Origin: an uncultured Eubacteriales bacterium
Lineage (GTDB): Bacteria; Bacillota; Clostridia; Christensenellales; CAG-917
Assembly: GCA_900548005.1 (NCBI GenBank)
Contig: URIZ01000001.1
Location: forward strand, 214,309-278,308
DNA length: 64,000 nucleotides
Direction: 5' to 3'
A program made the translations under genes and the position numbers. Of the stretch, positions 33,360 to 52,985 are shown one piece after another; position 1 is the stretch's first letter, and every line of letters begins with the position of its first letter. The notes beneath the pieces were generated by a model. That model had not been told where the DNA came from. It searched no databases and saw only the letters and a list, made by a program, of their open reading frames with translations.

Positions 33360-33693
33360 AACCGCGCCTTAAAATGTATAAAAAAATACTTTTCGTGTCG
33401 TATTATTAAAATTTTTCAAAAAAATATACGGCAAAATGTATGAAAACTTTTTTCTTGAAAACTCCGCTGTTTAGTGGGGTTTTGTGACATTGTGTGTGGT
33501 ATTTTACACAAGAAAAATCCACTTTTTGAAAAACCATTAAAGAAATTTTAATATTGGGCATTGTTTTTTTTTGCGGAATATGATAGCATAATCTAAGAGT
33601 TACGGCGCACGCTCGTGCATACACTATAATAGTTATAGTAAAATTGCAAAAATCGCCGCCTTGAGAGAAGATATTGTCAAAAAGGGGGTCGTA

Positions 33694-34737
33694 ATGATCT
33701 ACGACGTACAAAAGGCTAGTGTTACGAAGAGATTCGCAGCGTTTCTTCTTGACATCATTCTCATTGCTTGTTTGGCAGTGGGATTTATGGCTCTTGTTGC
33801 AGTTATTTGCAAATACGACACCCATTACAAAAATATGCAATCCATGGCGACTCAGGTTCAAGAAGAAGTCGTCGAAAGTTACAAGCAACAGACCGGTTTT
33901 GACTTGAATATGTCAAAGGAAGAATACGACGCTCTCACTGAAGAGCAGAAGACGCAAGTCAACGAGCTTCGCACAAAAGCCGGCAAAGAAATCACTGAAA
34001 AACTCAATGCAAACAGTGATTTTATGAAAGAGTACAAGTACATAAACGGCTTGACTCCGCTTATGGTTTCAATCGGGATTTTCCTTTCCGTATTGATTTT
34101 TGAATTTATTATCCCCGTAGCATTGAAAAACGGGCAAACTATCGGTAAAAAGGTCTTTGGGCTCGCCGTGATGCACACAAACGGCGTGCGTGTGAGACCT
34201 TTTTCTATGTTCGTTCGCTCCATACTCGGCATGTACGTTTTTGAAATGATGGTGCCGATATACTTGATTTTGATGGCGTTTTTCTATCACGTTTTGAGCG
34301 GATATATCGCAATCGGCGTTATTGTCGCAATCGTGATTTTGCAAATCGCCGTTTTTGCGTACACGTTCAAGAGCACCGCGTCCGTTTTGCACGACTTGAT
34401 TGCAAGGACGGTGTGCGTTGACTTCTCAAGCCAAATGATATTTGACAGCGAAGAAGAGCTTATGGAATTCAAAAAAGCGCAACAGGATGAACTTGCCGAG
34501 AGAGACGCATACCGAGAAGGGAAGAAATTTGACTTCTACAACAGCTCGCTCAATCGCAGAAACGGACGAAAAATCGTTGACGAAAACGGCAAAGAGATCG
34601 TCTATGACGATGAAAAGAAGGAAGAAAGCGCACCTTCAAACGAAACGTCGCAAGGCGAGAGTGTTTCCACTGTCGAAGAAAACGGCAAGGCAAATGCGAA
34701 TGCAAAAAAGCACATAAAGCATAAGAAAAACAAATGA
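33694..34737 (+). CDS. RDD-family membrane protein with a Lys/Glu-rich C-terminal tail
   Basis: The TKRFAAFLLDIILI N-terminus is typical of the RDD family, with several TM helices. The ATG at 33694 follows AAGGGGG. Confidence 0.65.
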   Translation: MIYDVQKASVTKRFAAFLLDIILIACLAVGFMALVAVICKYDTHYKNMQSMATQVQEEVVESYKQQTGFDLNMSKEEYDALTEEQKTQVNELRTKAGKEITEKLNANSDFMKEYKYINGLTPLMVSIGIFLSVLIFEFIIPVALKNGQTIGKKVFGLAVMHTNGVRVRPFSMFVRSILGMYVFEMMVPIYLILMAFFYHVLSGYIAIGVIVAIVILQIAVFAYTFKSTASVLHDLIARTVCVDFSSQMIFDSEEELMEFKKAQQDELAERDAYREGKKFDFYNSSLNRRNGRKIVDENGKEIVYDDEKKEESAPSNETSQGESVSTVEENGKANANAKKHIKHKKNK

Positions 34738-34818: not shown

Positions 34819-36579
34819 ATGAAAGTTGTATTAGAAAATTTGACGAAAATTTTCCAAAGTCGACACGAGAAAGGTAAAGAAGTCGTTGCTGTCAACAACT
34901 TCACGTTTGCTATTCCCGACGGAAAATTGGTCGGACTTCTCGGTCCGTCCGGTTGCGGCAAGAGCACCACGCTCTATATGATTTGCGGTTTGCAAAAGCC
35001 GACAGGCGGCAAGATTTATTTCGGTGACGACGACGTGACCGCTCTCGCGCCCGAAAACCGCGGCGTCGGACTCGTATTCCAAAACTATGCGCTTTATCCG
35101 CACATGACGGTCAAGCAAAACATTTTGTTCCCCCTTCAAAACTTGAAAGGCGCAGACAAACTTACCAAAGAAGAAATGCTTGAAAGAGCCTACGATGCGG
35201 CAAAACTCGTGCAAATCGACGAGCTTATGGATCGCAAACCGAGCGAACTTTCGGGTGGTCAACAACAACGTGTCGCAATTGCGCGTGCGCTTGTCAAGAT
35301 GCCCCGCGTTCTCCTTTTGGACGAGCCGCTTTCAAACCTTGACGCGCGTTTGAGACTTCAAACACGTGAAGAAATCAGACGTATCCAAAGAGAGACCAAC
35401 ATCACAACGGTGTTTGTCACCCACGACCAAGAAGAAGCGATGAGCATCTCGGACATGATCGTGGTTATGAAACTCGGCGTCGTGCAACAAATCGGCAAGC
35501 CGCAAGACGTGTATGACAGCCCTGCAAACTTGTTTGTCGCAAAATTCCTCGGAACTCCGCCGATCAACGTGTTCAAGGGCGAAGTGAAGGGTGGCAAAGT
35601 TTATATCGGCAAAGACGCAGTGCTTGACGCTCCTACGGTTGAAGATCAGGACGTGTACGTCGGCATCCGTCCGGAAGGTTTCATTCTTAACGAAAAAGGC
35701 GTGCTCGGATGCAAGCTCAGAAGCGTTGAAGTTATGGGACGCGACGTGAGCATAGTTTCCGAAAACGAAAATGCGGTCAGCCCGATCATCCGTTCAATCA
35801 TCGACGCTACAAGCGTTGTCGACACAAACAAGGACGAAGTGCGTTTCGACATCAAACCCAACAAGATTTTCATCTTCTCTCGTGGAAGAATCGATTGGAA
35901 TGTTCAAGATACGGCAACGGTGAAGTATCAATGGAACAAGATTCGCCGCGCATTGTCCGTTGACGAAGACGGACACGACTTTGACTTTGGCGTGCTTTCC
36001 ACAAGAGAAGAGGCAATCAAAGTTGCCACTGCTCAAGAAAGAAAGGAAAAACAACCCAAGTTTGTCAAGAATTTTGTCAAGAGCGCGCAAAAGAAATTTG
36101 AAAAACTTATCGATTTGTGCACACCCAAGGCAAAACCCGTCGAGCTCAATCTCGATACTCCCTACGTTTGCGTGGTGGATCATCAAGACGGCGCACCCGT
36201 ATATTTTGCGGGCGTTGAAGGCGGCAAACTTGTCACGACTCTCGACATAGCAGAGGCAATGGACGTGTTTGCAGAGCAATTTGACGACGGATTCGGCGTC
36301 TACTATCTTGTCGGAGACGAAAAAGTCTATCCGTCTTTCGTTGTTCACAACTCCGAAAACGACGAGAAGAGAATTTTCCTTTGCCAAGAAGACGAAGAAA
36401 AGTGCTTTGCATATATGAATGAAGTCGTTGCGGATGCAAAAATGACCGCAGACGTAGCAGACGTTGAAGAAATCGTCGAAGAAGTTGTTGAAGACGTCGT
36501 CGAAAACGGCGGAGAAGTTATTGTCGAAGAAAAAGTCGAAGTCAAAAAAGACGAAAACACCGACAGCGAGGTAAAATAA
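34819..36579 (+). CDS. ABC transporter ATP-binding protein (MalK/UgpC/MsmX type) with a ~230-aa C-terminal extension
   Basis: Walker A GPSGCGKST, signature LSGGQQQRV and Walker B LLLDEPLS, followed by a TOBE-like region to about residue 355. An unassigned domain ending in an acidic tail follows. Total length is 586 aa, against about 370 for typical family members. Confidence 0.88.
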   Translation: MKVVLENLTKIFQSRHEKGKEVVAVNNFTFAIPDGKLVGLLGPSGCGKSTTLYMICGLQKPTGGKIYFGDDDVTALAPENRGVGLVFQNYALYPHMTVKQNILFPLQNLKGADKLTKEEMLERAYDAAKLVQIDELMDRKPSELSGGQQQRVAIARALVKMPRVLLLDEPLSNLDARLRLQTREEIRRIQRETNITTVFVTHDQEEAMSISDMIVVMKLGVVQQIGKPQDVYDSPANLFVAKFLGTPPINVFKGEVKGGKVYIGKDAVLDAPTVEDQDVYVGIRPEGFILNEKGVLGCKLRSVEVMGRDVSIVSENENAVSPIIRSIIDATSVVDTNKDEVRFDIKPNKIFIFSRGRIDWNVQDTATVKYQWNKIRRALSVDEDGHDFDFGVLSTREEAIKVATAQERKEKQPKFVKNFVKSAQKKFEKLIDLCTPKAKPVELNLDTPYVCVVDHQDGAPVYFAGVEGGKLVTTLDIAEAMDVFAEQFDDGFGVYYLVGDEKVYPSFVVHNSENDEKRIFLCQEDEEKCFAYMNEVVADAKMTADVADVEEIVEEVVEDVVENGGEVIVEEKVEVKKDENTDSEVK

Positions 36580-36580
36580 T

Positions 36581-37534
36581 ATGGTAGACTCCAAACATCA
36601 ATGGAAAGCGTGGCTTTATCTGTCGCCGGCGTTGATATTGCTTGCCGTATTTACGGTGTGGCCTATCATCAACACCTTGATTATGGCGTTTTCGGACGGC
36701 TACGGCATGTTGTCTGCTATTGCGGGCGTAAAATTTGAGTTCGGTGTTCAGAACTTCAAAGACGTCGTCGCATGGAACGGTTTCACAAGCGCACTTAAAA
36801 ACACCATATTGCTTTGCGTGTTGACAGTGCCCATTTCCACGATACTTGCTCTTTTGATTGCGGTTACGCTCAACTCAATCAAACCGCTCAGAAGATTGCT
36901 TCAAACCATCTATTTCCTGCCGTACGTGACCAACTCGATCGCAATAGGCATGGTTTTTGCGGCAATGTTCAACATCACGGGCAGCTTTATCGGCACGGAA
37001 GGCGAAATCGTATACACCGCGGGCATCATGAACAACATTATAGAGGCATTTGGCGGTACTCGTATCAACTGGATCAACGCAGGTTCGTCTTATTGGGCGA
37101 ACATGACGGTCATGGTTGTGTACATAGTGTGGAACGCGCTCCCGTTCAAGATACTTGTTTTGCTGGGCGGTTTGCAAAGCATAAACAATCAGTATTACGA
37201 TGCGGCGAAGGTTGACGGCACGTCAAAGGGCAGGGTGTTGAGAAAAATCACCGTTCCGCTCCTTTCACCGATGATAGCATACGTTGTCATCACGGGCTTT
37301 ATCGGCGGATTTAAGGAATATTCCAGCGTCGTCGGTATTTTCGGCGAAAAAATGGGACCTGTCGGCGATGCGGGCAGATTGAACACCATGGTCGGTTATA
37401 TATACGACAACGTTGCTGGACAGATGCCGAACAACCAGGGCAAGGCGGCAGCCGCGGCTCTGATATTGTTTGCAATCATCCTTGCCGTTACACTTATCAA
37501 CTTGCAAGTCAGCAAGAAGAAAGTGCACTATTGA
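36581..37534 (+). CDS. ABC transporter permease (CUT1, MalF/UgpA-like)
   Basis: Six TM helices and the EAA loop AAKVDGTSKGRVLRKITVPLLSP. Confidence 0.85.
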   Translation: MVDSKHQWKAWLYLSPALILLAVFTVWPIINTLIMAFSDGYGMLSAIAGVKFEFGVQNFKDVVAWNGFTSALKNTILLCVLTVPISTILALLIAVTLNSIKPLRRLLQTIYFLPYVTNSIAIGMVFAAMFNITGSFIGTEGEIVYTAGIMNNIIEAFGGTRINWINAGSSYWANMTVMVVYIVWNALPFKILVLLGGLQSINNQYYDAAKVDGTSKGRVLRKITVPLLSPMIAYVVITGFIGGFKEYSSVVGIFGEKMGPVGDAGRLNTMVGYIYDNVAGQMPNNQGKAAAAALILFAIILAVTLINLQVSKKKVHY

Positions 37535-37546
37535 TGGAGGTGTATC

Positions 37547-38431
37547 ATGGCTGAAAGAGTTATGCAAGAACAAAGCGTAAAAAACACCTACATTAGGCAA
37601 ACGACATTCAAAGTGATCGGATACATCGTCAAGTATGCATTCCTTATTCTTGTGGCGGTGGCAGTTCTGTTCCCATTCTACTGGATGATCATCTCCTCGC
37701 TCAAATCGCTTGAAGAATATCGTCAAAGCGTGCCGACGTTTTGGCCGCAACACGTGCTGTGGAGCAACTATGCAGAAGCGTTCACGCAAGCAAATTTGTG
37801 GAGATTGTTCGGAAACACAGTGTTTGTCGGCATCGTGTCCACGATACTGTCGCTTGTGATAACGATACTCGCGGCATTTGCGTTTGCAAGGCTTGAATTC
37901 AAGGGCAAAAACATTCTTTTTGCGGGCTTGCTTGCAACGATGATGATTCCGGGCGAGTTGTTTACGATCACCAACTATATCACCGTTTCAAAGATGGAGT
38001 TGACCAACACCTACACGGTTTTGATCATACCCTTCCTTGTTAGCGTGTTCTACATCTATCTGTTGAGACAATCGTTTTTGCAGATACCCAACGAGTTGTA
38101 CTATGCGGCGAAAGTGGACGGAACGAGCGACTTCAAATACTTGCTCAAAGTCATGATTCCGCTTGCGCTTCCCACCATCATCACGATCACGATTTTGAAG
38201 ATGATGGGCGCGTGGAACTCGTATATGTGGCCGCGCCTTGTTGCAAACGACGATGCGCACGCGCTTGTCACTTACGGCTTGAGAAACGCATTCCAAGACG
38301 TGTCGGGCGATGTGAACTATCCCGTGCAGATGGCGGCTGTTGCCGTGGTCTCGCTGCCGTTGTTCCTGGTGTTTGTTTTCTTCAGAAAATACATCATGAA
38401 AGGCGTGTCGAGAAGCGGTATCAAGGGCTAA
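37547..38431 (+). CDS. ABC transporter permease (CUT1, MalG/UgpE-like)
   Basis: Six TM helices and the EAA loop AAKVDGTSDFKYLLKVMIPLALP. Confidence 0.85.
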   Translation: MAERVMQEQSVKNTYIRQTTFKVIGYIVKYAFLILVAVAVLFPFYWMIISSLKSLEEYRQSVPTFWPQHVLWSNYAEAFTQANLWRLFGNTVFVGIVSTILSLVITILAAFAFARLEFKGKNILFAGLLATMMIPGELFTITNYITVSKMELTNTYTVLIIPFLVSVFYIYLLRQSFLQIPNELYYAAKVDGTSDFKYLLKVMIPLALPTIITITILKMMGAWNSYMWPRLVANDDAHALVTYGLRNAFQDVSGDVNYPVQMAAVAVVSLPLFLVFVFFRKYIMKGVSRSGIKG

Positions 38432-38542
38432 GAACAATTGCGGAAGCGCGCAAAAACGCGCTTCCCGAAAACAAGAAATCAAGCCGTGTGGCACTGCCAT
38501 ACTTTGATTATAACAATAATTTATTTATAAAGGAGAATCGTT

Positions 38543-39934
38543 ATGAAGAAAAAAGGTATAGCCATTATACTTTTGGTCGTAATCGTGATTGCATCGCTCA
38601 GCGTGTTTGCTGCGTGTGATAAGAAAGACGACGGAAAACTTCACATCACTTTTTATCACACTATGGGTTCAAACCTTTCGGACGTGCTCAACGAGTATAT
38701 CGCAAAGTTTGAAGCATTGTATCCCGAATACAAGGTAGACGCAAAGCAAGTCGGATCTTATGATGACGTCAGAAACCAAGTTTCTTCCGAAATCATGACC
38801 GGAAAACAACCAAACCTTGCATATTGCTATCCCGACCACGTCGCGCTTTACAACATTGCAGGTGCAGTGCAAACTCTCGACGATTATATCAACAGCACCG
38901 AGACCGTGACAAGAGCTGACGGCACAACCGAAACGCTTGGATTGACGGCGGCACAAAAGGAAGACTTCATCGAAGGTTACTACAACGAAGGTAAGCAATT
39001 CGGCGACGGATTGATGTATTCCATGCCTTTCTCCAAATCCACCGAAGTGCTTTACTACAACAAGACGTTCTTTGAGAAGAACAACTTGAAAGTGCCCACC
39101 ACTTGGGATGAAATGGAAGCAGTTTGCGCAGCAGTGAAAAAAATCAACAGCAAGATCATTCCGCTCGGTTATGACTCCGAATCCAACTGGTTCATCACCA
39201 TGTGCGAACAACTCGGCTCTCTGTACACTGCGGCGAATTCCGAAACAAAAGAAGGTCACTTCCTTTTCAACAATGACACAAACAAAGATTTCATGCTCAG
39301 ATTCGTGAAATGGTATAAAAACGGTTATGTGACCACGCAAGAACTCAACGGCGGTTACACCTCCGACTTGTTCAAGAAACAAGAAGCTGTGATGTGCATC
39401 GGTTCTTCCGCAGGCGCAAAACACCAAATTCCTGAAAAAGTCAACGACAAATATCCGTTTGAAGCAGGCATCACCAGCATCCCGCAAATCAATCCGTCAA
39501 ACCCGAAGGTTATCTCTCAAGGTCCGTCTGTGTGCATCTTCAGAAAGAAAAACACCGAAGAAGTGAAGGCATCCTGGCTCTTCCTCAAGTATTTGACCAC
39601 CAATGCAAGCTTCCAAGCTGACTTCTCCATCGCATCGGGCTACGTTCCGGTCATCAAGTCCGCAGCAGAAGATCCAGTGTACCAAGAACAAATGGCAGCA
39701 GCCAACGGCCACGAAGGACTTCCGCAACTTTCCGCAAAGGTCTGCATCGAGCAAGAACACGCATACTATGCATCTCCTGCATTCTACGGTTCTTCCAAAG
39801 CTCGTGACGAAGTTGGTTCTCTCATCCAAAAGTGCTTCACCGACTGCTCAAAGCTCACTGACGAAGCTCAAATCAAAGCAGCTATCAACGCCGCATTTGG
39901 TATTGCAATCTCCAACTGCGTACAAAGCCTGTAA
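38543..39934 (+). CDS. extracellular solute-binding lipoprotein (family 1, ligand unknown)
   Basis: Lipobox VFAAC-D and 463 aa. Overall resemblance to CUT1/UgpB-type binding proteins, and a position in the ABC operon. Confidence 0.8.
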   Translation: MKKKGIAIILLVVIVIASLSVFAACDKKDDGKLHITFYHTMGSNLSDVLNEYIAKFEALYPEYKVDAKQVGSYDDVRNQVSSEIMTGKQPNLAYCYPDHVALYNIAGAVQTLDDYINSTETVTRADGTTETLGLTAAQKEDFIEGYYNEGKQFGDGLMYSMPFSKSTEVLYYNKTFFEKNNLKVPTTWDEMEAVCAAVKKINSKIIPLGYDSESNWFITMCEQLGSLYTAANSETKEGHFLFNNDTNKDFMLRFVKWYKNGYVTTQELNGGYTSDLFKKQEAVMCIGSSAGAKHQIPEKVNDKYPFEAGITSIPQINPSNPKVISQGPSVCIFRKKNTEEVKASWLFLKYLTTNASFQADFSIASGYVPVIKSAAEDPVYQEQMAAANGHEGLPQLSAKVCIEQEHAYYASPAFYGSSKARDEVGSLIQKCFTDCSKLTDEAQIKAAINAAFGIAISNCVQSL

Positions 39935-40066
39935 ACAAAACGCAAACAAGGCGTATGAATTTTCATGCGCCTTGCACGCGTTGTAACGCTTTTTAGTCGC
40001 AAAAACGGCATCGACGTGATGTCGGCCATTGTCGCAAGGCACGCCTTGCGCGAAAATCTTATCGAA

Positions 40067-41383
40067 ATGAAAAGAAACGTACTTATAGTCTCAATAGTGT
40101 TTGTGTTGTGCGTTTTGTTGACGTGTTTTGTTGCATGCGGCGACAAAGACGGCGGCAAGATGGTGGACTATGTCTCTCAACTCAAACTGGACATGAACAG
40201 CACGTCGCTCAAGAAAGTCGTGACTATCAAAAACTATGTTGACGGCGATACGACTCACTTTTGGGCGGACGTAGATTCCACCGGTGTCGTGAAGGCAAGA
40301 TATCTTGCAATCAACACCCCCGAGTCGACGGGCAGAATCGAAGAATACGGCAAACAAGCGTCCAAGTTCACGAAAGATAAATTGAAAAACGCAACTTCCA
40401 TTCTCATCGAGTCTGACAACGACAAGTGGAACACCGACGCAAACGGCAGATATCTCGTTTGGGTGTGGTACAAGACGAGCGACGACGCAGAGTGGCGCAA
40501 TCTCAACATCGAGATTTTGCAAAACGGTCTTGCGATTGCATCCAACACGGCAGAGAACAGATACGGCACAATCGCTATGGCTGCGCTCAATCAAGCGCAA
40601 AATAATAAGCTGAAGGTTTTCTCCGGAGAGAAAGACCCCGAGATGTACTACGGCGAAGCACAAGAGATCACTCTCAAAGAGTTGAGATGCAACATCGAGT
40701 CGTACAGCAACGTCAAAGTCGCCTTTGAAGGCAACATAGTGCTTGACAGCGGCGGCTCCGTGTACATTGAAGAATACGATGAAGAGACGGGCATCTACTT
40801 TGGCATCTCCGTATACTACGGCACGGCAAATCTCAGCGCAACGGGCATGAAGATACTCACCAAGGGCAATCGCGTGCGCATTGTCGGATCTGTGCAATAC
40901 TATGAAACGGGTGATTTGTGGCAAATCTCCGGCTTGCAATACAAGCCCAGAGATCCCAAGAATCCCGACAACATCCAAAAGATCGAAGACGAGGGCGGAC
41001 ACGAGCCTGCATATCCGCTTGTGGATGCGGCAACCTTCCTTGGCAAGATCACCATTCAAGGCGATGATGAGGCAATCGAGATGGATTATGCCAACGCAAC
41101 GCTCAACACGTCCATTGCGATGAACGAGTTGACGGTGAAGAGCATCTACACCACGACTGCCGAGAGCAGCTCGTCTGTGGGCGCAATGACTTTCACTTGT
41201 CAGACCAAAGACGGCAAGACCGTTTATGTGCGCACAACCGTTCTCAAGGACGAAGACGGCAACACGATCACCAAAGACGCATATCTTGGCAAAACCATCA
41301 ACGTTAAGGGCTTTGTCGACAAGTTTGACGGTGATTATCAAATCAAGGTGTTCTCACCCAAAAACATTACCATCGTTGCATAA
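40067..41383 (+). CDS. thermonuclease (staphylococcal nuclease, SNase)-like lipoprotein with C-terminal OB-like modules
   Basis: Lipobox FVAC-G. The SNase-like region is VDGDTTHFW....VKARYLAINTPEST....YGKQASKFTK. Two downstream beta-rich modules end in GNRVRIVGSVQYY and INVKGFVDKFDGDYQIKV (OB-like). I chose the ATG at 40067 over the track start at 39965. Confidence 0.75.
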   Translation: MKRNVLIVSIVFVLCVLLTCFVACGDKDGGKMVDYVSQLKLDMNSTSLKKVVTIKNYVDGDTTHFWADVDSTGVVKARYLAINTPESTGRIEEYGKQASKFTKDKLKNATSILIESDNDKWNTDANGRYLVWVWYKTSDDAEWRNLNIEILQNGLAIASNTAENRYGTIAMAALNQAQNNKLKVFSGEKDPEMYYGEAQEITLKELRCNIESYSNVKVAFEGNIVLDSGGSVYIEEYDEETGIYFGISVYYGTANLSATGMKILTKGNRVRIVGSVQYYETGDLWQISGLQYKPRDPKNPDNIQKIEDEGGHEPAYPLVDAATFLGKITIQGDDEAIEMDYANATLNTSIAMNELTVKSIYTTTAESSSSVGAMTFTCQTKDGKTVYVRTTVLKDEDGNTITKDAYLGKTINVKGFVDKFDGDYQIKVFSPKNITIVA

Positions 41384-41429
41384 CGATGTCGATGTATAAA
41401 AACAAAAATCTTTATTAAGGAGAATAGCA

Positions 41430-44400
41430 ATGAAAAAACTATTAGCAGTTGCACTTGTATTGGTGCTGTGTTTATCAGTGGTTCTCGTAGCTTGCGACAA
41501 GAAGGGTGGCGGTGGAACGACAGATTCCAACAACCCTGTTGCAAAACTCGATGCGGCAGCTGACGCAGTCTACAAGTTGAACAAGGATAGTATCCCTTCA
41601 GAGACGACAAGCAGCTTTGATTTGTCAAAGGCGGTCCCGCTTGAAGGAATCTACTCATTCCCGATTGAATGGACTGTCAACACCGACAAGATCCAAATTG
41701 TCGACAAAGGAAACGGAACTCAAGTCACTGTCAAAATCCCTGAAAGATCACCTGAAGAGATTGTCTACACGTTGACTGCAACCGTCAAAGCAGACGATGG
41801 CTCTACAAAGTCTGTCACGTTTGAGCGCAAAGTCCCGCAATTTGTCGTGGCAACTTATGACGAATACATCGCGGCTTGCGAAGCAAAAGATGCAAACAAG
41901 ACTTACAATATCGTTGGATATGTTGTTGGCGTAAATGCAGACAAAGACTCATCTTCTGTCGGTAGTTTGTGGATCATGGACAAAGACGGACATGGATATT
42001 ATGCATATGCTCCGGTTGTTACCGATGCAGTGAAAGCTTCCAGAGAAACTATCAATGCAGAATTCCCGTTCGGCACTGAAGTTATTGTCAACGGCACTCT
42101 CACGCTTTATAACGGCGCATATGAATTCAACAAAGGCTGCACTGTCAAGAAGACCGGCCGTACAGCAGCACAAGATAACGTAACGCTTGATTATGTTGAT
42201 CGCACCGAAGCATTCGGCAGTATCGGACAAAATTATACCGATCCGTCTCTTGTTCCGTTCCAAGCAACCATGGCAAGCCTTACCGGCATCACGATGGGCA
42301 GAATCGATGGACTCAATCTCTACTTCACGATCGGCGAAAACGACAGAGAATTCATTTGCTACAACAATGTCTATCTCATGGATGATAAAACCATGGAAGC
42401 ATTCAAGGAAAAATGGATCCCCGGCGGAAAGGCAAACCTTAAAGGTATTGTAAACGTTTACAGTAGTAAATATCAAATTTATCCGAACAGCCTTGACTGC
42501 CTTGAAATCGTACAACAAACAGATGCAGAAAAAGTGGAAGGTGTCAAGAATGCATTGTCTCTCGAAGAAAAGTATTCTTCAAACTTCACGCTCCCGACCA
42601 GCACTTTGGTTAACGTAACTTGGACGGTTTCCGGCACCGGCGCAGTCATCGGTGAAAACAACCTTGTTACTATCACCCAAACGAACGAAGATCAACAAGT
42701 TGTGTTTACGGCAACCATCACCAGCGGTGATGTGACTGACACGAAAGTCTTCAACGTCACGATTTCAAGACTTGCAATTACGTTTATCAAGAAAGCTCTT
42801 GATGCTGCAGACGCACTTGCAGATAAGGCAACAACCCCGGATTCTTATATGCTTATCGGTACCGTAAAGGAAATCACCAGTTCATATAGCGAAGAATACA
42901 AGAACGTATCGTTCATACTCTCAGACGGTGTGTGGGACGTTCTCATCTATCGTTACAATCTTGACGATGCAGCAACAATCAAAGTCGGTGATTTCGTTTC
43001 TATCGCAGCTCCGATGAAGAAATTCGGAACGACGCTCGAAGCAGTTGCAACCTTTGTCAAAATGAATGTCACCGACATCGCAACTGCATACAAAGCTGCC
43101 AATGATGGCACAGGCGTTGACGGCACGATCGTTTATGGACAAATCGTGAAGATCGGCAGCGCATATAGCGATCAATTCAAGAACATCACCGTTACTATTT
43201 CCGATGGTACGACAGAAATGGATTGCTATCGCTTGGCAGGCGGCTCTGATCTTGCAGTTGGCGATTACATTCTCGTCACCGGTAAACCCGACAAATACAA
43301 AACCACTGTTCAATTTGCTCAAGGTGCAACTTACACTAAGTCTGCAATCTATGTCGCGCCGATTTGCGTGCACGTTGATGAGAATGCGGACGGAAAATGC
43401 GATCTTTGCGAAAAACAATTGAAGTTTGAAACTGCGGAAGAAACCGTCAATGCTGCATATGCACTTGCAGTTGGCGAATCTCTTCTCACTCAAACATTGA
43501 CTGGTACTATCAAATCGATTGATACAGCATACAGTGCCGATTTCAAAAATATCACTGTCACAATTCAAGTTGGCGAATTGGCAGACAAGACCATTTCTTG
43601 TTTCCGTTTGGCAGGTGGTGCAAACCTTGCAGTCGGAGATGTCATCACTGTCACAGGTACGCTTTTGAACAAAGATGGTAAAGTCCAATTTGATGCAAAA
43701 TCAACTTACGTTTTGTCGGATGCAAATATCATTGCAAAAGACAAGGCAGCTTTGTCCCTTGAAGAAAGCTATCACGCAAACTTCAACCTTTTGCTTGAAG
43801 GTGCAAACGGCTCTACGATCGTTTGGACGACAAAAGAAGCAACTGAAGTTGTTTCTATCGATCCGTCCACCGGTGTTGTGACGATCAATCCTGTTGATCC
43901 GAGCACCACAATCGTTCTTGTCGCAACCATCACCAAAGGTACAGAAAGCGATACAAGAGAATTCACAGTTAACATTTTGAAAGAAGCTCCGCAATACACC
44001 GTCAATTACAGTGCAGGTGAAAACGGAACTATAGCATCTGTCAAAGCAGGCGAAAAAGATGTCAAAACCGGCGACAAGGTCGTTGCTGACACCAAGCTCA
44101 CTGTCACCGTTGCTCCTGCAGATGGATTCAGACTTGCATCCGTCACCATCGGTGAAGGCGCAGCAGACACTTCCGTTGCAGGCAAGACTTCCTTTGAACT
44201 CACAATCACGGCAGACACCACTTTCGCAGTCGCATTTGCAGAAATCCCTGCGAATACAACTGTAACTGCAAAGTATACCGGAAGCACAACAACAAATATG
44301 GCGGCAGGTAAAAATAACGCATCAAAGATTGCTCTTGATGAAAGCGTGTTTAATGTTACTTCTGCAAAAACTGGGGGATCGATCGAAGTTGGTCTCAATA

Positions 44401-44651
44401 AAGATGGTACTATTAGACTTTACAAAGATGGTACTACTCCTTTGACAATTACCATTGCAGAAGGACATGAGATTGTTTCTATCAAGGTTACTTATGGCAA
44501 AGACAAAGGTGCTTTGGTTGTAACAAATGGTACTGATACAATCGCTGAGGAAAGTGGCGTTTATACAATTAATGGAAGGACGGTTGTGTTAAGCAATTCA
44601 AGTACTGATGCTCAATGCCATATTAAGTCGATTGAAATCATCTATAAATAA
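41430..44651 (+). CDS. large modular surface lipoprotein (repeated OB-like, Ig-like and InlB-B-repeat-like modules)
   Basis: Lipobox LVAC-D followed by a Gly-rich linker. Three related modules share Y-S-x-x-(Y/F)-K-N-(V/I)-(S/T)..(I/V)..DG...C-(Y/F)-RLAGG..LAVGD..VTG. Three short Ig-like modules share (I/V)-W-T-V/T...T-A-T-I-T. A YTVNYSAGENGTIASV module lies near the C-terminus. Confidence 0.7.
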   Translation: MKKLLAVALVLVLCLSVVLVACDKKGGGGTTDSNNPVAKLDAAADAVYKLNKDSIPSETTSSFDLSKAVPLEGIYSFPIEWTVNTDKIQIVDKGNGTQVTVKIPERSPEEIVYTLTATVKADDGSTKSVTFERKVPQFVVATYDEYIAACEAKDANKTYNIVGYVVGVNADKDSSSVGSLWIMDKDGHGYYAYAPVVTDAVKASRETINAEFPFGTEVIVNGTLTLYNGAYEFNKGCTVKKTGRTAAQDNVTLDYVDRTEAFGSIGQNYTDPSLVPFQATMASLTGITMGRIDGLNLYFTIGENDREFICYNNVYLMDDKTMEAFKEKWIPGGKANLKGIVNVYSSKYQIYPNSLDCLEIVQQTDAEKVEGVKNALSLEEKYSSNFTLPTSTLVNVTWTVSGTGAVIGENNLVTITQTNEDQQVVFTATITSGDVTDTKVFNVTISRLAITFIKKALDAADALADKATTPDSYMLIGTVKEITSSYSEEYKNVSFILSDGVWDVLIYRYNLDDAATIKVGDFVSIAAPMKKFGTTLEAVATFVKMNVTDIATAYKAANDGTGVDGTIVYGQIVKIGSAYSDQFKNITVTISDGTTEMDCYRLAGGSDLAVGDYILVTGKPDKYKTTVQFAQGATYTKSAIYVAPICVHVDENADGKCDLCEKQLKFETAEETVNAAYALAVGESLLTQTLTGTIKSIDTAYSADFKNITVTIQVGELADKTISCFRLAGGANLAVGDVITVTGTLLNKDGKVQFDAKSTYVLSDANIIAKDKAALSLEESYHANFNLLLEGANGSTIVWTTKEATEVVSIDPSTGVVTINPVDPSTTIVLVATITKGTESDTREFTVNILKEAPQYTVNYSAGENGTIASVKAGEKDVKTGDKVVADTKLTVTVAPADGFRLASVTIGEGAADTSVAGKTSFELTITADTTFAVAFAEIPANTTVTAKYTGSTTTNMAAGKNNASKIALDESVFNVTSAKTGGSIEVGLNKDGTIRLYKDGTTPLTITIAEGHEIVSIKVTYGKDKGALVVTNGTDTIAEESGVYTINGRTVVLSNSSTDAQCHIKSIEIIYK

Positions 44652-44697
44652 TCAATGTTGTTATTTTGAAACAACAAATTATCTAATTTAGGTAATA

Positions 44698-44730
44698 CAA
44701 AGCCCCGCAGAAATGCGGGGCTTTGGTTTT
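44698..44730 (+). terminator. rho-independent terminator ending the nuclease/ABC locus
   Basis: CAAAGCCCCGCA-GAAA-TGCGGGGCTTTG followed by GTTTT. Confidence 0.85.
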
Positions 44731-44770
44731 GTAAAAGTGTATTTTCAATTTGAATTTGCGTTTTTTCCAT

Positions 44771-44815
44771 GTCATTCAGAGCGCAAGCGAAGAATCTCGC
44801 GGAAGCGAAAAGGAA
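44771..44815. repeat. repeat family 3 module
   Basis: GTCATTCAGAGCGCAAGCGAAGAATCTCGCGGAAGCGAAAAGG closely matches the inverted module at 25409-25454. Confidence 0.75.
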
Positions 44816-44935
44816 AAGCAAATATGCGCCTGACGGCTGGATGTTTCGACAAGCTCAACATGACAGTATAAAATCAAGCAAAAAAAAGACACCATGCGCA
44901 ATGCGTGGTGTCTGTAAAATTGCGATGATTTTTGC

Positions 44936-45928
44936 TCACAGCCATTTCGTATTGGTTGATTTGAAGTCGCGCACCATTTGGTCGGCGTCAAGAAGCATTT
45001 GTTTCATCTCTTTCTTGCTGTGGACGGTTGCGCCGCAAGCGCGGTCGTGTCCGCCACCGTTGTATTTTTCGGCAAGGGCGTTGATGGTCATAAATCTCGA
45101 GCGCAGGCGCACGCGGATGCTGCCGTCCGTGTTCTCGATAAAGGCGAGCCAAGCTATGCTGCCTTTGATGCCGTCAAGATAGCTCACAACGTTGCTTGCT
45201 TGCTCGTTGGTGAGTGAAAACTTCTTTTGCATCTTCTTGTCCACGTAGATATACGCAACTCCGTTTTGCGTGACGCGCATCTTTTTGTAGACGTAGGATT
45301 CAAATTTGAGCACTTCAAACTCGTCGAGATTGAGATTGGCATACACCCATTCGGTGTCGATGCCTTGATCGAGCATAAGCCCTGCAAGGCGCATGGTTTC
45401 GCCGTTGACGCTGCTGTATTTGAATCTGCCCGTGTCCGTCACCATGCCGGTGAAGATGTAGGTTGCAGCCAGCGAGTCTATCACAAGCTCGCTCTTGAAC
45501 GTGTTGTAGAAGTCGGCAATCATTTCGCAAAGGGATGAGCGTTCTTCTTCCACCCATTTGATGTTGCCGTACTCGGTGCGGTCGCTCTCTATGTGGTGGT
45601 CGATCTTGACGATCTCTTTGCCGAGCGAAAACTTCTTGTTGGAGATACGGTCGGTGGTGGCGGTGTCGCACACGATGACGAGTGCGTCCTTGTATTCTTC
45701 GTCGCTTATGGGCTTGTCTTCGCCGCCCAAAAATGCGAGATAGTCCGAACTGTCTTCGTTGATGAGAAGCACTTTCTTTTGGGGATAGGTGAGCGCAAGG
45801 ATGCGTTGCAAGCCCTTTGTCGAGCCGATTGCGTCTCCGTCGGGGCGGAAGTGGCGCGTCAACACGATTGTGTCGTATGCCTTTATCTTGTCAAGGATTG
45901 CTTGTTTTGTTGCAAAATTGTCCGTCAT
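44936..45928 (-). CDS. nrnA: DHH/DHHA1 phosphoesterase (NrnA-like oligoribonuclease / pAp phosphatase), paralog 1
   Basis: Motifs DGDAIGS, VCDTAT, DHH (KIDHHIES) and GGGHDRACGA; 330 aa. Confidence 0.75.
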   Translation of the reverse strand: MTDNFATKQAILDKIKAYDTIVLTRHFRPDGDAIGSTKGLQRILALTYPQKKVLLINEDSSDYLAFLGGEDKPISDEEYKDALVIVCDTATTDRISNKKFSLGKEIVKIDHHIESDRTEYGNIKWVEEERSSLCEMIADFYNTFKSELVIDSLAATYIFTGMVTDTGRFKYSSVNGETMRLAGLMLDQGIDTEWVYANLNLDEFEVLKFESYVYKKMRVTQNGVAYIYVDKKMQKKFSLTNEQASNVVSYLDGIKGSIAWLAFIENTDGSIRVRLRSRFMTINALAEKYNGGGHDRACGATVHSKKEMKQMLLDADQMVRDFKSTNTKWL

Positions 45929-46872
45929 ATTGTTTCTCCTTCTTGGGTGAGCTTGTCAAGCTCGTCAAGCACGATTTGCGCCTCTTGTCTGTCTTTGAGC
46001 GTTGCGCCGCTGGCTTTGAGATGTCCGCCACCGCCGTGCGCCACTGCGATTTGGTTGATGTTGCGATTTTTGGAGCGTATCTCGCACAGCACGCCTTGTT
46101 CGCACTCGGTGAAGTTCACCCACGTGTTCACGCCCTTGATCTCGCCCATGCAATTCACCATACCGCGCGACACTGCTTGCGCTTCCATGCCCGTCTCGGC
46201 AACGCGCGCAAGGTCGGAATAGATATACGCAACGTTGTGCTCGGTGAAGCGGATTGCGGTGACAAACTCCGCGCGCAATTTCACGTTTTTGAATTCGTCC
46301 TGATACAGCTCGTTGTATATGCTCGTTGCGCTGAACCCTTTGGACAACAGAAAGCTCGCCAAATCGAACGTGCGCGGCGTTGTGCTGTCATAGCGGAATC
46401 TTCCGCTGTCCGTCACAAGCCCCGTGAAAAGCGCTTTGGCGGCGTCAACGGGCACGTCAAGTCCCCATTCGCGCGCAAGATAGGTCACAAGACCGCAACA
46501 ACTCTCAAAACTCGTGTCGTCTATGTCGATTTCCGCGATGTCTTCAACAAATATGTGGTGGTCTATGCGGATGCGAAGATCGGCAAGTTTGTAGCGATCG
46601 TCACTGATGAGCGAATTTGCCGACGTGTCCAGCACGATTGCCAATGCGCCGTGATACACTTCGTCGCTTATCTCGTCCATTTTGCTGCCGTCCATAAAGG
46701 AAAATCGCCTTGCGTCATCTCCCACGGCGTACACTTGCTTGTCGGGGAAGTTGTGCTCGATGATTTTCTTCAAGCCGATCTGACTGCCCATTGCGTCGCC
46801 GTCCGGGCTTGTGTGGCGGTGTATGACGATAACGTCGTATTGCTTGATTGCGTCAAGTGCCTTGCTTATCAT
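45925..46872 (-). CDS. DHH/DHHA1 phosphoesterase (NrnA-like), paralog 2
   Basis: Motifs DGDAMGS, VLDTS, DHH (RIDHHIF) and GGGGHLKASGA; 315 aa. It has a 4-nt overlap with the downstream paralog. Confidence 0.75.
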   Translation of the reverse strand: MISKALDAIKQYDVIVIHRHTSPDGDAMGSQIGLKKIIEHNFPDKQVYAVGDDARRFSFMDGSKMDEISDEVYHGALAIVLDTSANSLISDDRYKLADLRIRIDHHIFVEDIAEIDIDDTSFESCCGLVTYLAREWGLDVPVDAAKALFTGLVTDSGRFRYDSTTPRTFDLASFLLSKGFSATSIYNELYQDEFKNVKLRAEFVTAIRFTEHNVAYIYSDLARVAETGMEAQAVSRGMVNCMGEIKGVNTWVNFTECEQGVLCEIRSKNRNINQIAVAHGGGGHLKASGATLKDRQEAQIVLDELDKLTQEGETI

Positions 46873-47008
46873 GTTTCACCTATAAGTTTTCTCAATTTAT
46901 TTAGTAGTAAATGATACCACACAATGCGCATTTAGTCAACAACGCGTTTTTGTGCGGTGAAAAGCCGTGATTTTGACGATGATTTGCCAAGCCTTGCGCA
47001 ACGTCCGC

Positions 47009-48535: not shown

Positions 48536-48623
48536 GCCGGCGTGGTGAAACTGGCAGACGCGCTGGACTCAAAATCCTGTGGACTAATCATCCGTGTCGG
48601 TTCGAGTCCGACCGCCGGCACCA
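48536..48623 (+). tRNA. tRNA-Leu (anticodon CAA), type II with a long variable arm, CCA encoded
   Basis: Hand fold: acceptor GCCGGCG/CGCCGGC, anticodon loop CUCAAAA, T-arm GTCGG-TTCGAGT-CCGAC, discriminator A, then CCA. Confidence 0.9.
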
Positions 48624-49411: not shown

Positions 49412-50110
49412 TTACTCTGCTTTTATCATTCTATATCCAACGCCTACATGAGTTTGAATATATTGCGGTGAATCGGTGGTCGATTCGATTTTTTTGCGTA
49501 AGGTAGCCATAAAGACACGCAGAGAAGCGATATTGCTTTCCCATGCCGCGCCCCATATTTTTTGCGTAATAAAAGTGTGGGTAAGTACTTTTCCGACGTT
49601 TCTCGACAGCAAACAAAGCAATTTATACTCGATTGGGGTAAGATGGAGTTCTTCATTGCTTAAATATGCGCACCCTGCCGCGTAATCTATTTTTAGATTT
49701 CCGTTCACAAAAATCGATTCGGACTTGTTCGCCGATTGCATTGTAGCCAATCTTCTTTCGGTAACTCTTATTCTTGCCAACAATTCTTCGACAGAAAACG
49801 GTTTTGTCAGATAATCGTCAGCGCCGGCGTCAAGTGCTTCGATTTTTTCTTTATCTTCGGTTCTTGCGCTTATTACGATGATCGGCAATTCCGACCATGT
49901 GCGAATTTTTTTGATAACATCAACACCGTCGATATCAGGCAAGCCTAAATCGAGCAAAACGATGTTCGGATTGTTGGAAGACGCTTGCATAAGGGCACTT
50001 TCGCCGGTTGAAGCGGTCATATAGTTGTAACCGTGGGTTTTCAAGGTCGTTCCGATGAGGTTGCGAACCGGTGCATCGTCTTCCACAACTAAAATCAGCA
50101 AGTTATTCAT
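49412..50110 (-). CDS. kdpE: OmpR-family response regulator (KdpE-like)
   Basis: Receiver domain (LLDLGLPDIDG), a winged-helix output ending in GVGYRM, and an overlap with the kdpD-like gene. Confidence 0.8.
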   Translation of the reverse strand: MNNLLILVVEDDAPVRNLIGTTLKTHGYNYMTASTGESALMQASSNNPNIVLLDLGLPDIDGVDVIKKIRTWSELPIIVISARTEDKEKIEALDAGADDYLTKPFSVEELLARIRVTERRLATMQSANKSESIFVNGNLKIDYAAGCAYLSNEELHLTPIEYKLLCLLSRNVGKVLTHTFITQKIWGAAWESNIASLRVFMATLRKKIESTTDSPQYIQTHVGVGYRMIKAE

Positions 50111-52073
50111 GAATATCCACCTCTCCTACGGGTAGTGTAAACGTAAATATCGCACCGTGCGGAACATTGTCGGTTACGGTTATTTCTCCGCCGTGTGCGT
50201 TTATAATCGATTTGCATAACGAAAGCCCTATTCCGATACTTCGACGACTATCGGCGATTTTGTTTGTGCCGGTGTAAAACATATCGAAAACACGCAGTTT
50301 TTGATCGTCTGCAATTCCGTTTCCGTTGTCCGCCACACTTAAACAAACCATATTGTCGGCTCTTTTTGATGTTATTGTGATCTGCGAATCGGAAGGGGTG
50401 TATTTGATTGCGTTGTCCAACAGATTGATCAACACCTGCACAATAAGTCGAGCGTCCATTTGAGCAAGAAGCAAGTCATCGGGCTGGATGACGGTGATAG
50501 TTTGTTTTTCGCTTTTTACACGAACATGTTTCAGCGCCTCATCGATTACATCGCCGACAAGTTCGGTGGTTAAATTTATATTCATTCTGCCTTCTTCAAG
50601 GCGAGTTACGGAAAGCAAATTCTCAACCAGATTGATAAGCCAAAGAGAATCATCATAAATATCTTCGTAGATTTGCTTTTTTGTGATATCGTCAATATCG
50701 TTGCCGTTTGAAATCAGATTGCTTGCATTCCCGGAAATGGAAGTAAGCGGAGTTCGCAAGTCGTGCGATATGGAACGTAGCAGGTTTGCACGCAATTGTT
50801 CGTTTTTTGCCAAAACCGCGGCGCGTTCGCGTTCTTTTGCGTTTACAATTCCGTCAACAGCGAGCGCACATTCTCCTATAACGGAATTTACAATGCTTTC
50901 ATCAAAGGCATCAATCGGATTGTTCCCGACAAAAACGCCTATTGCACCATAGTTTTTGCCGTTTTTACATATTGGGAAAAAAGTATAGTCGTTTTCAGAG
51001 TAAATGCTTGTTCCTTTTCCTGCTTTTACGTTGTTTTTGGTGACTTGCAGAAGTATTTGTGCGCAGTCTTGCGGCACAATGACCGTATCATTTTCAGTTG
51101 GAAGCGAGCAACGACATTGAGATTTGTCATCGAAAACAATCACCGTTCGGTTTAACAGTTTTTTCAATTGATTTGCTGTAACGCGAAATATCTCACTTTC
51201 GTCGGGTGCTTGTTGAATCAACTGATTGGCATCAAACAAAATTTTTGTTCTGTATGCCGTTTGAGTTGCCTGACGTTCACGCGATTTAAGTTTTTCCGCC
51301 GTGCCGCCTATAACAAGGGATGCAACGAGCATAATCACAAAAGTCACGGGATATCCGTTGCCGTACGCTAACAGCGAAAACCTTGGTTCTGTAAACAAAA
51401 AATTAAAGAGCAATACACTCACGACAGAGGAGAGCACCCAACAAATCTTGCTTTCGGTCAATATGGCGGTGATGAGAATTCCGAGCATATAAACGGTTAT
51501 AATGTTTGCATCGGTAAAGCCAAATTTTGAGAATATATAACCGAGAAGCGTTGCAATCGAAAGCACTATTGTCGAAACGATTACCCCTTTGACAATTTTG
51601 AAAAATGCCGGCTTTTCAAAGACTTTTGCCTTTCCTTTGGGCAAAACGGCATCGCTGTCGGGAATAATATGTATATCGACGTTTGGGGCGAGAGATATTA
51701 GTTTTTCCGTCAAAGTGGGCTGCAAAGCTAAACGTTTTTTGTTTACAACGCTTCTTCCGATCACTATTTTTGTAACGCCTGAAAGACGTGCATATTCCGC
51801 AATTTGAAAAGGAATATCGTCACCGCATACCGTAGTGACGGATGCTCCGCATTCTTCTGCAAAATGTATATTGGAAAGCAATCGCTCTTTGTCTTTTGAC
51901 TGCAATGATGCAGTGGATGGCGTTTTTATGTACAATGCGGAAAACATTGCGCCGAACGCTTTTGCCATGGATGATGCCGTTTGTATTATTTTCGTATTCG
52001 AAGGCGATGAGGATATACAAACCAAAATATGTTCGGCATTTTTGTCTGTATTTTTATTGTGATTGTCTGACAA
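50103..52073 (-). CDS. kdpD: KdpD-like sensor histidine kinase lacking the N-terminal Kdp sensor domain (USP-TM-GAF-like-HisKA-HATPase)
   Basis: USP-like N-terminus (HILVCISSSPSNTKII...KIVIGRS), 3-4 TM helices (DUF4118-like), H-box SISHDLRTPLT and an ATPase domain. It has a TTG start after AAGGAGG. At 656 aa it is well short of the ~890 aa of classical KdpD. Confidence 0.8.
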   Translation of the reverse strand: MSDNHNKNTDKNAEHILVCISSSPSNTKIIQTASSMAKAFGAMFSALYIKTPSTASLQSKDKERLLSNIHFAEECGASVTTVCGDDIPFQIAEYARLSGVTKIVIGRSVVNKKRLALQPTLTEKLISLAPNVDIHIIPDSDAVLPKGKAKVFEKPAFFKIVKGVIVSTIVLSIATLLGYIFSKFGFTDANIITVYMLGILITAILTESKICWVLSSVVSVLLFNFLFTEPRFSLLAYGNGYPVTFVIMLVASLVIGGTAEKLKSRERQATQTAYRTKILFDANQLIQQAPDESEIFRVTANQLKKLLNRTVIVFDDKSQCRCSLPTENDTVIVPQDCAQILLQVTKNNVKAGKGTSIYSENDYTFFPICKNGKNYGAIGVFVGNNPIDAFDESIVNSVIGECALAVDGIVNAKERERAAVLAKNEQLRANLLRSISHDLRTPLTSISGNASNLISNGNDIDDITKKQIYEDIYDDSLWLINLVENLLSVTRLEEGRMNINLTTELVGDVIDEALKHVRVKSEKQTITVIQPDDLLLAQMDARLIVQVLINLLDNAIKYTPSDSQITITSKRADNMVCLSVADNGNGIADDQKLRVFDMFYTGTNKIADSRRSIGIGLSLCKSIINAHGGEITVTDNVPHGAIFTFTLPVGEVDIHE

Positions 52074-52165
52074 ATTCTATCGACCTCCTTTTTTTATATA
52101 ATAACATCGGTTGCTAAATCCTACAACTACATTCTTTTGAACCGACAATAAATCTTATAGTTTTT

Positions 52166-52318: not shown

Positions 52319-52319
52319 C

Positions 52320-52973: not shown

Positions 52974-52985
52974 ATAATAACCTCC

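Follow-up and report, generated by a model that had tools for sequence, protein, structure and literature searches.

What is an ATP-binding cassette (ABC) importer for when it is encoded in one operon with a surface nuclease and a giant lipoprotein rich in oligonucleotide/oligosaccharide-binding (OB)-like modules? The question is raised by a locus in a 64,000-nucleotide (nt) stretch of DNA from an uncultured Eubacteriales bacterium (contig URIZ01000001.1 of assembly GCA_900548005.1, positions 214,309 to 278,308, forward strand; this whole stretch is called the window throughout). The operon faces two convergent genes for NrnA-like proteins. An earlier reading of the bare sequence (the original prediction) had proposed that the locus captures, degrades and takes up extracellular nucleic acid. 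Our analysis points the same way. The locus is probably a seven-gene operon for scavenging extracellular nucleic acid, which would capture DNA or RNA, digest it, import fragments of nucleotide or dinucleotide size and have them finished in the cytoplasm. The features on which this reading draws are as follows.

33526-33555, plus strand: weak sigma-70-like promoter candidate upstream of the RDD gene (TTGAAA-17-TAATAT, 9/12 consensus; a consensus match only)
33694-34737, plus strand: RDD-family membrane protein, first gene of the conserved unit (PF06271, 2.3e-10; GGGGG Shine-Dalgarno sequence before the ATG at 33694)
34819-36579, plus strand: ABC ATPase of the MalK/UgpC type, 586 amino acids (aa) (ABC_tran, 1.4e-36; MalK-type C-terminal domain)
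36581-37534, plus strand: CUT1-type permease A, UgpA/MalF-like (BPD_transp_1, 1.6e-18)
37547-38431, plus strand: CUT1-type permease B, UgpE/MalG-like (BPD_transp_1, 1.9e-16)
38543-39934, plus strand: solute-binding lipoprotein, here the solute-binding protein (SBP) (SBP_bac_1/8; SBP_bac_8, 3.9e-41)
40067-41383, plus strand: SNase lipoprotein, an SNase domain with two C-terminal OB-like barrels (PF00565, 1.2e-12)
41430-44651, plus strand: multi-OB lipoprotein of 1073 aa, the proposed capture protein (aBig_2 and PF01336; AlphaFold2 (AF2) model)
44698-44725, plus strand: intrinsic terminator of the importer/nuclease operon (12-bp stem, 8 GC pairs, T-rich tail, predicted -24.1 kcal/mol)
44880-44912, minus strand: intrinsic terminator of the convergent nrn operon (hairpin 44912-44888 then T8, predicted -13.5 kcal/mol; read from the sequence, absent from the consensus-scan list)
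44936-45928, minus strand: NrnA-like DHH/DHHA1 paralogue 1 (DHH 3.3e-15, DHHA1 2.8e-12)
45925-46872, minus strand: NrnA-like DHH/DHHA1 paralogue 2 (DHH and DHHA1; 34% identical to paralogue 1)
46939-46911, minus strand: promoter-like site upstream of the nrn operon (10/12 consensus, extended TG)

The six co-oriented and two convergent open reading frames (ORFs) of the original prediction were all present in the ORF list and its translations, and the families assigned to them (ATPase, permeases, SBP, SNase, OB and DHH/DHHA1) were upheld by Pfam and NCBIfam. Gaps said to be short, between 1 and 132 nt, measured 1, 12, 111, 132 and 46 nt from the ATPase gene to the giant lipoprotein gene, and the strong terminator placed after the sixth gene was found there as the 12-bp stem listed above. 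What did not stand was the beginning of the operon. The RDD gene, which had been missed, ends 81 nt upstream of the ATPase gene, and a consensus scan found no promoter-like site on the plus strand in the gap between them; the other six genes keep their place behind it. All three secreted proteins, the SBP, the nuclease and the giant protein, start with a lipoprotein signal and carry lipobox cysteines when read from the sequence (FAAC, FVAC and LVAC). The two DHH/DHHA1 genes overlap by 4 nt. A weak terminator-like hairpin of 7 pairs lies in the 111-nt gap between permease B and the SBP (38486-38502, plus strand) and could be either a modulator of relative expression or a chance match.

We then compared the locus with its relatives. 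At least 584 stretches of species-representative genomes encode a relative of the nuclease; by label they belong mostly to uncultured gut Oscillospiraceae, Faecousia, Christensenellales and other Clostridia. Some related metagenome-assembled genomes are labelled Bacilli, Mollicutes or Sphaerochaetaceae, labels that could not be independently confirmed. The neighbourhood survey covered the 80 most similar of these stretches together with four loci from exact look-ups, and ORFs around the locus were clustered in 81 loci. Because the surveyed loci are the closest relatives of the query, mostly from one order of Clostridia, the conservation figures describe one broad lineage. Across it the order RDD-ATPase-permease-permease-SBP-SNase is essentially invariant. 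The four ABC genes lie immediately upstream of the nuclease gene in 60 of the 61 loci with enough flank, so that the linkage of transporter and nuclease seen in the window recurs in its relatives, and the RDD gene precedes the ATPase gene in 58/58 of those with enough flank for it. A giant-protein homologue is detectable downstream of the nuclease in 57/74. Identity is highest in the cytoplasmic and membrane parts and decreases towards the exposed ones: 72-82% for the ATPase (over the shared core in complete copies), 63-87% for the permeases (64-87% for permease A), 54-69% for the SBP, 51-61% for the nuclease and a patchy 23-50% for the giant protein. Beyond the seven operon genes there are two recurrent neighbours, the NrnA pair and a gene for the SurE nucleotidase; any other was found in at most 10 of the 81 loci.

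The nuclease contains an SNase domain by profile (PF00565, 48.7 bits vs a cut-off of 21, E 1.2e-12, aa 78-182) and by fold. Its AF2 model has a predicted local distance difference test score (pLDDT) of 87.6 and shows the SNase domain at aa ~45-190, followed by two five-stranded barrels (aa ~217-288 and ~349-428) with the strand and helix order of an OB fold. Foldseek matched it to S. aureus nuclease entries with target-normalised TM-scores of 0.80-0.88. A 27-member family alignment, read together with one to S. aureus nuclease, shows that the residues equivalent to D19/D21, R35, T41, E43 and R87 are invariant. The SNase-like lipoprotein of the original prediction is borne out in profile, fold and the catalytic Arg/Glu/Arg, and by the alignments and the model it is probably an active nuclease tethered to its substrate. 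With a threshold of E<1e-5 its family comprises over 6500 proteins. The reading frame stays open as far back as 39965, and the start at 40067 is favoured because homologues and the signal peptide fit it. A 416-aa ORF runs antisense to the gene (40091-41341, minus strand); similar antisense ORFs lie opposite conserved genes in related loci, and they look like a by-product of codon composition and not like genes.

The giant lipoprotein was described from its sequence as full of OB-like modules, and profile and structure agree. The AF2 model (pLDDT 82.7) has five such modules (aa 143-245, 259-361, 452-540, 550-636 and 669-762), which form barrels, as well as three aBig_2 domains (aa 36-135, 365-445 and 764-849), an Ig-like domain (aa 855-938) and then a variable C-terminal beta domain. 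The whole protein matches PF01336 with 38.2 bits vs a cut-off of 27. Single modules were sub-threshold in the Pfam scans (21.9 bits, for example), so a repeat-profile search was needed to place them in this family. The three C-terminal modules (OB3-5) are repeats of one another, and a profile made from them retrieved 2397 cluster representatives from a collection of 1.84 billion proteins, where a single protein can hold as many as 13 copies; PF01336 was present in 63/63 sampled matches (best 8.7e-32). Since a nuclease domain was found in none of these 63, we take the family to be one of non-catalytic multi-OB surface proteins. In Foldseek the tandem OB pairs matched two DNA binders, Teb1 and the HIN domains of IFI16/p202, with probability 1.0; the rest of the list for the whole 1073-aa model consisted of long multi-domain beta proteins with meaningless TM-scores. 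Membership of PF01336 suggests that the modules bind nucleic acid.

Two further observations concern this protein. In the low-confidence linker between OB4 and OB5 (aa ~640-665, 43347-43424) there is a Cys-rich motif, CVHVDENADGKCDLCEK, a homologue of which gives a faint match to a CPxCG zinc finger; the linker may be a metal- or disulfide-stabilised hinge. The protein is also a mosaic when close strains are compared. It is 98% identical to one homologue (P0124) over aa 22-949, with an unrelated C-terminal domain, and it has its first 450 aa (78%) and the aBig_2/Ig part in common with another (P0197), in which Big_2 and PF22359 take the place of the three OB repeats. From the sequences, this looks like module shuffling in a surface-exposed protein.

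The importer has the parts of a CUT1-type binding-protein-dependent transporter (TC 3.A.1.1) within the operon: the two permeases are both BPD_transp_1, the ATPase is of the MalK/UgpC type and has a C-terminal regulatory domain, and the binding protein belongs to SBP_bac_1/8. Among the NCBIfam models all four components score best with those of the Ugp system, far under the equivalog cut-offs (ATPase with UgpC, 340 bits against 432; permease B with UgpE, 7.7e-30; SBP with the UgpB model NF008211, 71.2 bits against 411). Identities to E. coli UgpC, UgpA, UgpE and UgpB are 42, 23, 23 and 24%. We searched Protein Data Bank (PDB) entries for relatives of the SBP, with the single sequence and with a family profile, and both put 7C0F and 7C0X (of the 7C0F-7C1B series) at the top, at 1.8e-21 and 5e-23. 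UgpB proteins came next (2e-15 to 8e-14), and sugar binders lay below these phosphate-ester binders (~1e-13), with local matches only. The SBP also gave a weak N-terminal match to a P68 lipoprotein model (2.4e-10); Pfam gives SBP_bac_1/8 alone. 7C0F is a Thermus thermophilus protein, from a CUT1 ABC transporter, that binds the dinucleotide uridylyl-3'-5'-phosphoguanosine (U3G) (Chandravanshi et al. 2021, cited in PMC12718374). Its pocket measures 1291 A3 vs 315 in binders of glycerol 3-phosphate (G3P) (PMC12718374, Table S5). In UgpB, the glycerophosphocholine (GPC) binder and the dinucleotide binder, and not in glucose binders, the phosphate is coordinated by two Tyr and two Ser (PMC12718374).

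We asked if this site is present in the family by aligning the window SBP and 76 SBPs from related loci (77 family sequences) with E. coli UgpB. At least 95% of the 77 sequences retain the Tyr/Ser/Ser/Tyr tetrad and an Arg, and the motifs that hold the tetrad (GxY, SKST, GSSAG and SGYVPV) align with the E. coli UgpB positions. Of the glycerol clamp formed by Trp169 and Trp172 in E. coli UgpB, the family has the Trp172 equivalent alone; the place of Trp169 lies within the conserved DSE of 'GYDSE.NW'. The sequence comparison supports a place for the SBP in the phosphate-ester (UgpB/GPC/dinucleotide) branch of CUT1. The original prediction had allowed for an ordinary oligosaccharide binder, and the result went against this, the nearest relative being a dinucleotide binder in the phosphate-ester branch. 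Because the tetrad and Arg are kept while Trp169 is not, the ligand is very probably a phosphate ester, and probably one other than G3P itself. Within the phosphate esters we infer a 3'-nucleoside monophosphate (3'-NMP), a dinucleotide or something longer as the imported species. To name di- or short oligonucleotides as what is transported is a tentative choice.

The same site gives the best-placed alternative its footing. The operon could be part of a phosphate-scavenging regulon and not a serial pathway, with a Ugp-like importer for G3P or glycerophosphodiesters and a nuclease that frees phosphate or nucleotides for other systems, the two being co-located via phosphate limitation. We consider this unlikely. 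The best NCBIfam matches are indeed UgpC, UgpA, UgpE and UgpB, the phosphate tetrad is common to UgpB, and in one relative (L004) a glycerophosphodiester phosphodiesterase (GDPD) gene lies near the locus. However, the Ugp matches fall far short of equivalog level (71 bits vs 411 for the SBP), Trp169 of the glycerol clamp is not conserved and 7C0F outranks every UgpB. No UgpQ or GDPD is encoded in the operon or the window region, GDPD is not among the recurrent neighbour clusters of the 81 loci, and the neighbours that do recur are nucleotide-processing enzymes.

These neighbours would supply the cytoplasmic part of the scavenging pathway. Both convergent genes encode DHH and DHHA1 domains with intact DHH and GGGH motifs as read in the translations, and the best PDB match of both is B. 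subtilis NrnA, 5J21 (6.4e-64 for paralogue 1 and 2.1e-52 for paralogue 2). Their scores with the NrnA model NF053633 (241.5 and 243.7 bits) stay below the cut-off of 350, the equivalog level, and on these sequence matches the NrnA-type genes of the original prediction are best named NrnA-like paralogues. The pair was found in 37 of the 81 clustered loci. It lies up to 9 kb downstream in 30/49 loci and is convergent in 29 of those 30. In 38 loci a SurE 5'/3'-nucleotidase (240 aa, PF01975, 8e-46) is encoded directly after NrnA paralogue 1 on the same strand, so that relatives have an nrn2-nrn1-surE operon (for example with surE at 17414-18139, minus strand, in L061 and at 12654-13361, minus strand, in L025). 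This strengthens the link between NrnA and the locus that had been proposed from the window. NrnA-type enzymes act on 2-5-mers and pAp, and SurE acts on 3'- and 5'-NMPs.

In one relative the NrnA pair and the importer may differ in their history. Compared with the window (36523-46881), locus L070 (CALGEU010000376.1) has an NrnA pair with 87.5% DNA and 92% protein identity, and importer/nuclease genes with ~70-72% DNA and 57-76% protein identity, although the two adjoin. Because the NrnA pair is far more alike than the genes next to it, this suggests that the importer operon was replaced by recombination or transfer, or that it evolved much faster.

A second alternative would make the NrnA pair and SurE housekeeping neighbours: an enzyme encoded elsewhere would dephosphorylate nucleotides outside the cell, and the importer would take up nucleosides or bases. 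This is the textbook bacterial route, and it would fit those loci that have no NrnA pair nearby (19 of 49). We think it improbable nevertheless. The operon encodes no extracellular nucleotidase or phosphatase, and the SBP conserves a site that coordinates phosphate. Known nucleoside ABC importers, moreover, use binding proteins of the BMP family and not of SBP_bac_1/8.

A third, of slightly lower probability still, takes the importer as an ordinary oligosaccharide transporter that happens to lie beside surface proteins for remodelling of matrix or extracellular DNA, for adhesion or for evasion of host DNA traps. Its Pfam families, SBP_bac_1/8 and BPD_transp_1, are those usual in sugar importers, the PDB matches of the SBP include binders of chitin and malto-oligosaccharides, and the giant protein is hypervariable between strains in the manner of an adhesin or antigen. 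Yet the sugar binders rank under all phosphate-ester binders with local matches only, neither a glycoside hydrolase nor a sugar kinase is among the recurrent neighbours in 81 loci, and the transporter and nuclease are linked in 60 of 61. An anti-phage or anti-plasmid defence module built on the surface nuclease is very improbable indeed, since the match to the PADLOC candidate model 'SNc+LTD' (6.9e-16) reflects the shared SNase domain only, the other components give generic ABC ATPase similarity alone, and extracellular lipoproteins with an importer sit here in a chromosomal housekeeping context.

For the scavenging of nucleic acid that we favour, the parts suggest a sequence of four steps. 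First, the multi-OB lipoprotein and the two OB barrels of the nuclease would hold DNA or RNA at the membrane surface. The SNase domain would then cut it to 3'-phosphorylated mono- and dinucleotides or short oligonucleotides; 3'-phosphorylated mono- and dinucleotides are the products of the SNase family. In the third step the SBP would capture a phosphate-bearing fragment and deliver it to the type I ABC importer. Finally, the two NrnA-type enzymes would hydrolyse short fragments and 3'-phosphates in the cytoplasm, where in many relatives the co-operonic SurE would act likewise, feeding nucleotide salvage and the supply of phosphate or carbon. One might go further and see here a Gram-positive 'nucleic-acid utilisation locus', comparable to a polysaccharide utilisation locus, with OB capture, a tethered nuclease, an SBP for 3'-phosphorylated di- or oligonucleotides, a dedicated importer and two NrnA-type enzymes (plus SurE in relatives); this more specific picture is possible, and we hold it with some doubt.

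Several points weigh against the scavenging pathway. Part of the conservation is shared ancestry, because the 80 loci are closest relatives, mostly of one Clostridia order. The Ca2+ ligand Asp40 of SNase is an invariant Asn across the nuclease family, so activity and metal use may differ. The relationship between the SBP and 7C0F is remote (~84 bits) and the comparison covers the phosphate site; G3P and glycerophosphodiesters are bound through this tetrad as well. Those 19 of 49 loci have no NrnA pair within 9 kb, and surE is not present anywhere in the 64-kb window, which means that the cytoplasmic step is not obligatorily linked to the importer. We found no regulatory signal by which nucleotide or phosphate status would act on the operon: when the whole window was scanned with Rfam for riboswitches and other regulatory RNAs, one tRNA came up and nothing else, and a k-mer count over 62 related regions upstream of the RDD gene gave only A/T-rich strings and the start of the coding sequence.

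The ATPase has a lineage-specific C-terminal extension of 230 aa with an acidic Glu/Val-rich tail (aa 356-586, 35884-36579). Most of its relatives are ~367 aa long and are without the extension, which is partial in L005; the 586-aa form is fixed in this species, where all of a 307-member cluster are 586 aa. The extension has no Pfam match, and a homology search with it returned one irrelevant fragment, a result that is uninformative as the 586-aa protein itself is in that collection. Immediately upstream of the RDD gene, two related loci (L032, 1-2739; L078, 6-2501) encode an additional, paralogous CUT1 transporter, whose permeases share 46-52% and whose SBP shares ~30% identity with the window proteins.

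The minor recurrent neighbours, too, are phosphoesterases. Upstream of the RDD gene, 8 loci encode a PHP-domain protein whose DLHxHSxxSDG motif is TrpH/YciV-like. An HD-domain (dGTPase-like) protein occurs in 9 loci, and a phosphoribosyltransferase is encoded downstream in L001-L003 (example coordinates of these minor neighbours are L001 3752-4621, L040 2854-4032 and L041 15353-16813). In the window the flanking genes are ordinary chromosomal ones: lgt, nicotinate phosphoribosyltransferase, an M20 peptidase, a KdpD-like two-component pair and TrkAH. The one tRNA gene (48536-48620, plus strand) and the KdpD-like histidine kinase and response regulator, which adjoin TrkA/TrkH potassium uptake (49412-54314, minus strand), are unrelated to the operon.

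The general view is that bacteria remove the phosphate from nucleotides outside the cell and take up the nucleosides, so that importing nucleotide fragments would be unusual as a route. For mycoplasmas, uptake of nucleotides or dinucleotides in intact form has been proposed since 2007; to our knowledge, the transported molecule and the ligand of the binding protein are both undefined there to date. If the more specific picture of a nucleic-acid utilisation locus is true, the operon would be the first defined bacterial di- or oligonucleotide importer, widespread in uncultured gut Clostridia and with a mechanism common to the mycoplasma system. With at least 584 matching stretches, and the permease sequence on 627 contigs in this species, it may be one of the major routes by which nucleic acid is turned over in the gut, and it may be relevant to the cultivation of fastidious Oscillospirales. 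It would also be a cleaner test bed than the mycoplasma operon. The SBP is a canonical soluble-domain protein whose nearest structural relative binds a dinucleotide, the catalytic residues of the nuclease are intact, the multi-OB capture protein is a separate one and can be studied one module at a time, and the cytoplasmic partners (two NrnA, and SurE in relatives) predict the chemistry of the imported product. A literature search found no description of such an operon in Clostridia.

Elements of the locus are known from other systems. B. subtilis YhcR combines OB folds, an SNase domain and a 5'-nucleotidase on one wall-anchored protein, and so resembles the locus in joining PF01336-type OB folds to an SNase domain at the cell surface. 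Here, however, the OB modules are divided over two proteins, the nuclease and a separate giant lipoprotein, the anchor is a lipid and not a sortase product, there is no nucleotidase domain, and the genes are joined to an ABC importer. UgpBAEC of E. coli and M. tuberculosis, an importer of G3P and glycerophosphodiesters, is alike in transporter class, in being the best NCBIfam match of four components, in an ATPase that is 42% identical to UgpC and in the tetrad and Arg. It differs in that the scores are far under the equivalog cut-offs, Trp169 and UgpQ are missing here, and nuclease and OB proteins are added. Thermus 7C0F is the closest solved relative of the SBP; both have the Tyr/Ser/Ser/Tyr phosphate site and both lack the full Trp clamp of UgpB, whereas the SBP exceeds 7C0F by ~55 aa and has a conserved insertion at aa ~105-150, across a remote relationship (~84 bits). 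Two free-living wall-less bacteria that grow on or degrade DNA and RNA, Izemoplasma strain zrk13 (thermonuclease) and Hujiaoplasma strain zrk29 (extracellular ribonuclease and NrnA), have such genes in loci with ABC transporters (PMC8397711, PMC10470597). They are alike in concept, with an extracellular nuclease and ABC transporters (and NrnA in Hujiaoplasma), but the loci are larger and more heterogeneous (EddB, phosphohydrolases and phosphate transporters).

The nearest counterpart is the one that the original prediction had named, and it is documented. The genomes of M. agalactiae, M. bovis, M. hyopneumoniae, M. pneumoniae and M. hominis encode an SNase lipoprotein (Mhp379, MAG_5040, MPN133, MG186 and MBOVPG45_0310 being the proteins described) together with an ATPase and two permeases, and in M. 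agalactiae and M. bovis a P80/P81/MslA lipoprotein is encoded alongside (PMC3585158, PMC4045577, PMC9740415). The M. agalactiae genes are co-transcribed and the set was termed a putative nucleotide transporter operon; MslA binds DNA in single- and double-stranded form (PMC3585158, PMC4045577, PMC9740415). P80 is a 'Lipoprotein X/10' family protein (PMC9769879). The order of the genes differs (SBP-SNase-ATPase-permeases there, ATPase-permeases-SBP-SNase-OB here), as does the binding protein, which is of the P80 family there and a canonical SBP_bac_1/8 protein here. The locus here additionally has the RDD protein, the OB extension of the nuclease, the giant multi-OB lipoprotein and, as a neighbour, the NrnA pair, all of them outside the mycoplasma description. 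By that published description the two have in common a binding-type lipoprotein, an SNase lipoprotein, a MalK/UgpC-like ATPase, which is long in mycoplasmas too (2103 bp in M. bovis), and two CUT1-like permeases, as well as the proposed logic of digesting host nucleic acid and importing precursors. By analogy, then, the locus matches the long-hypothesised P80/MslA-SNase-ABC operon of mycoplasmas in both its parts list and its logic.

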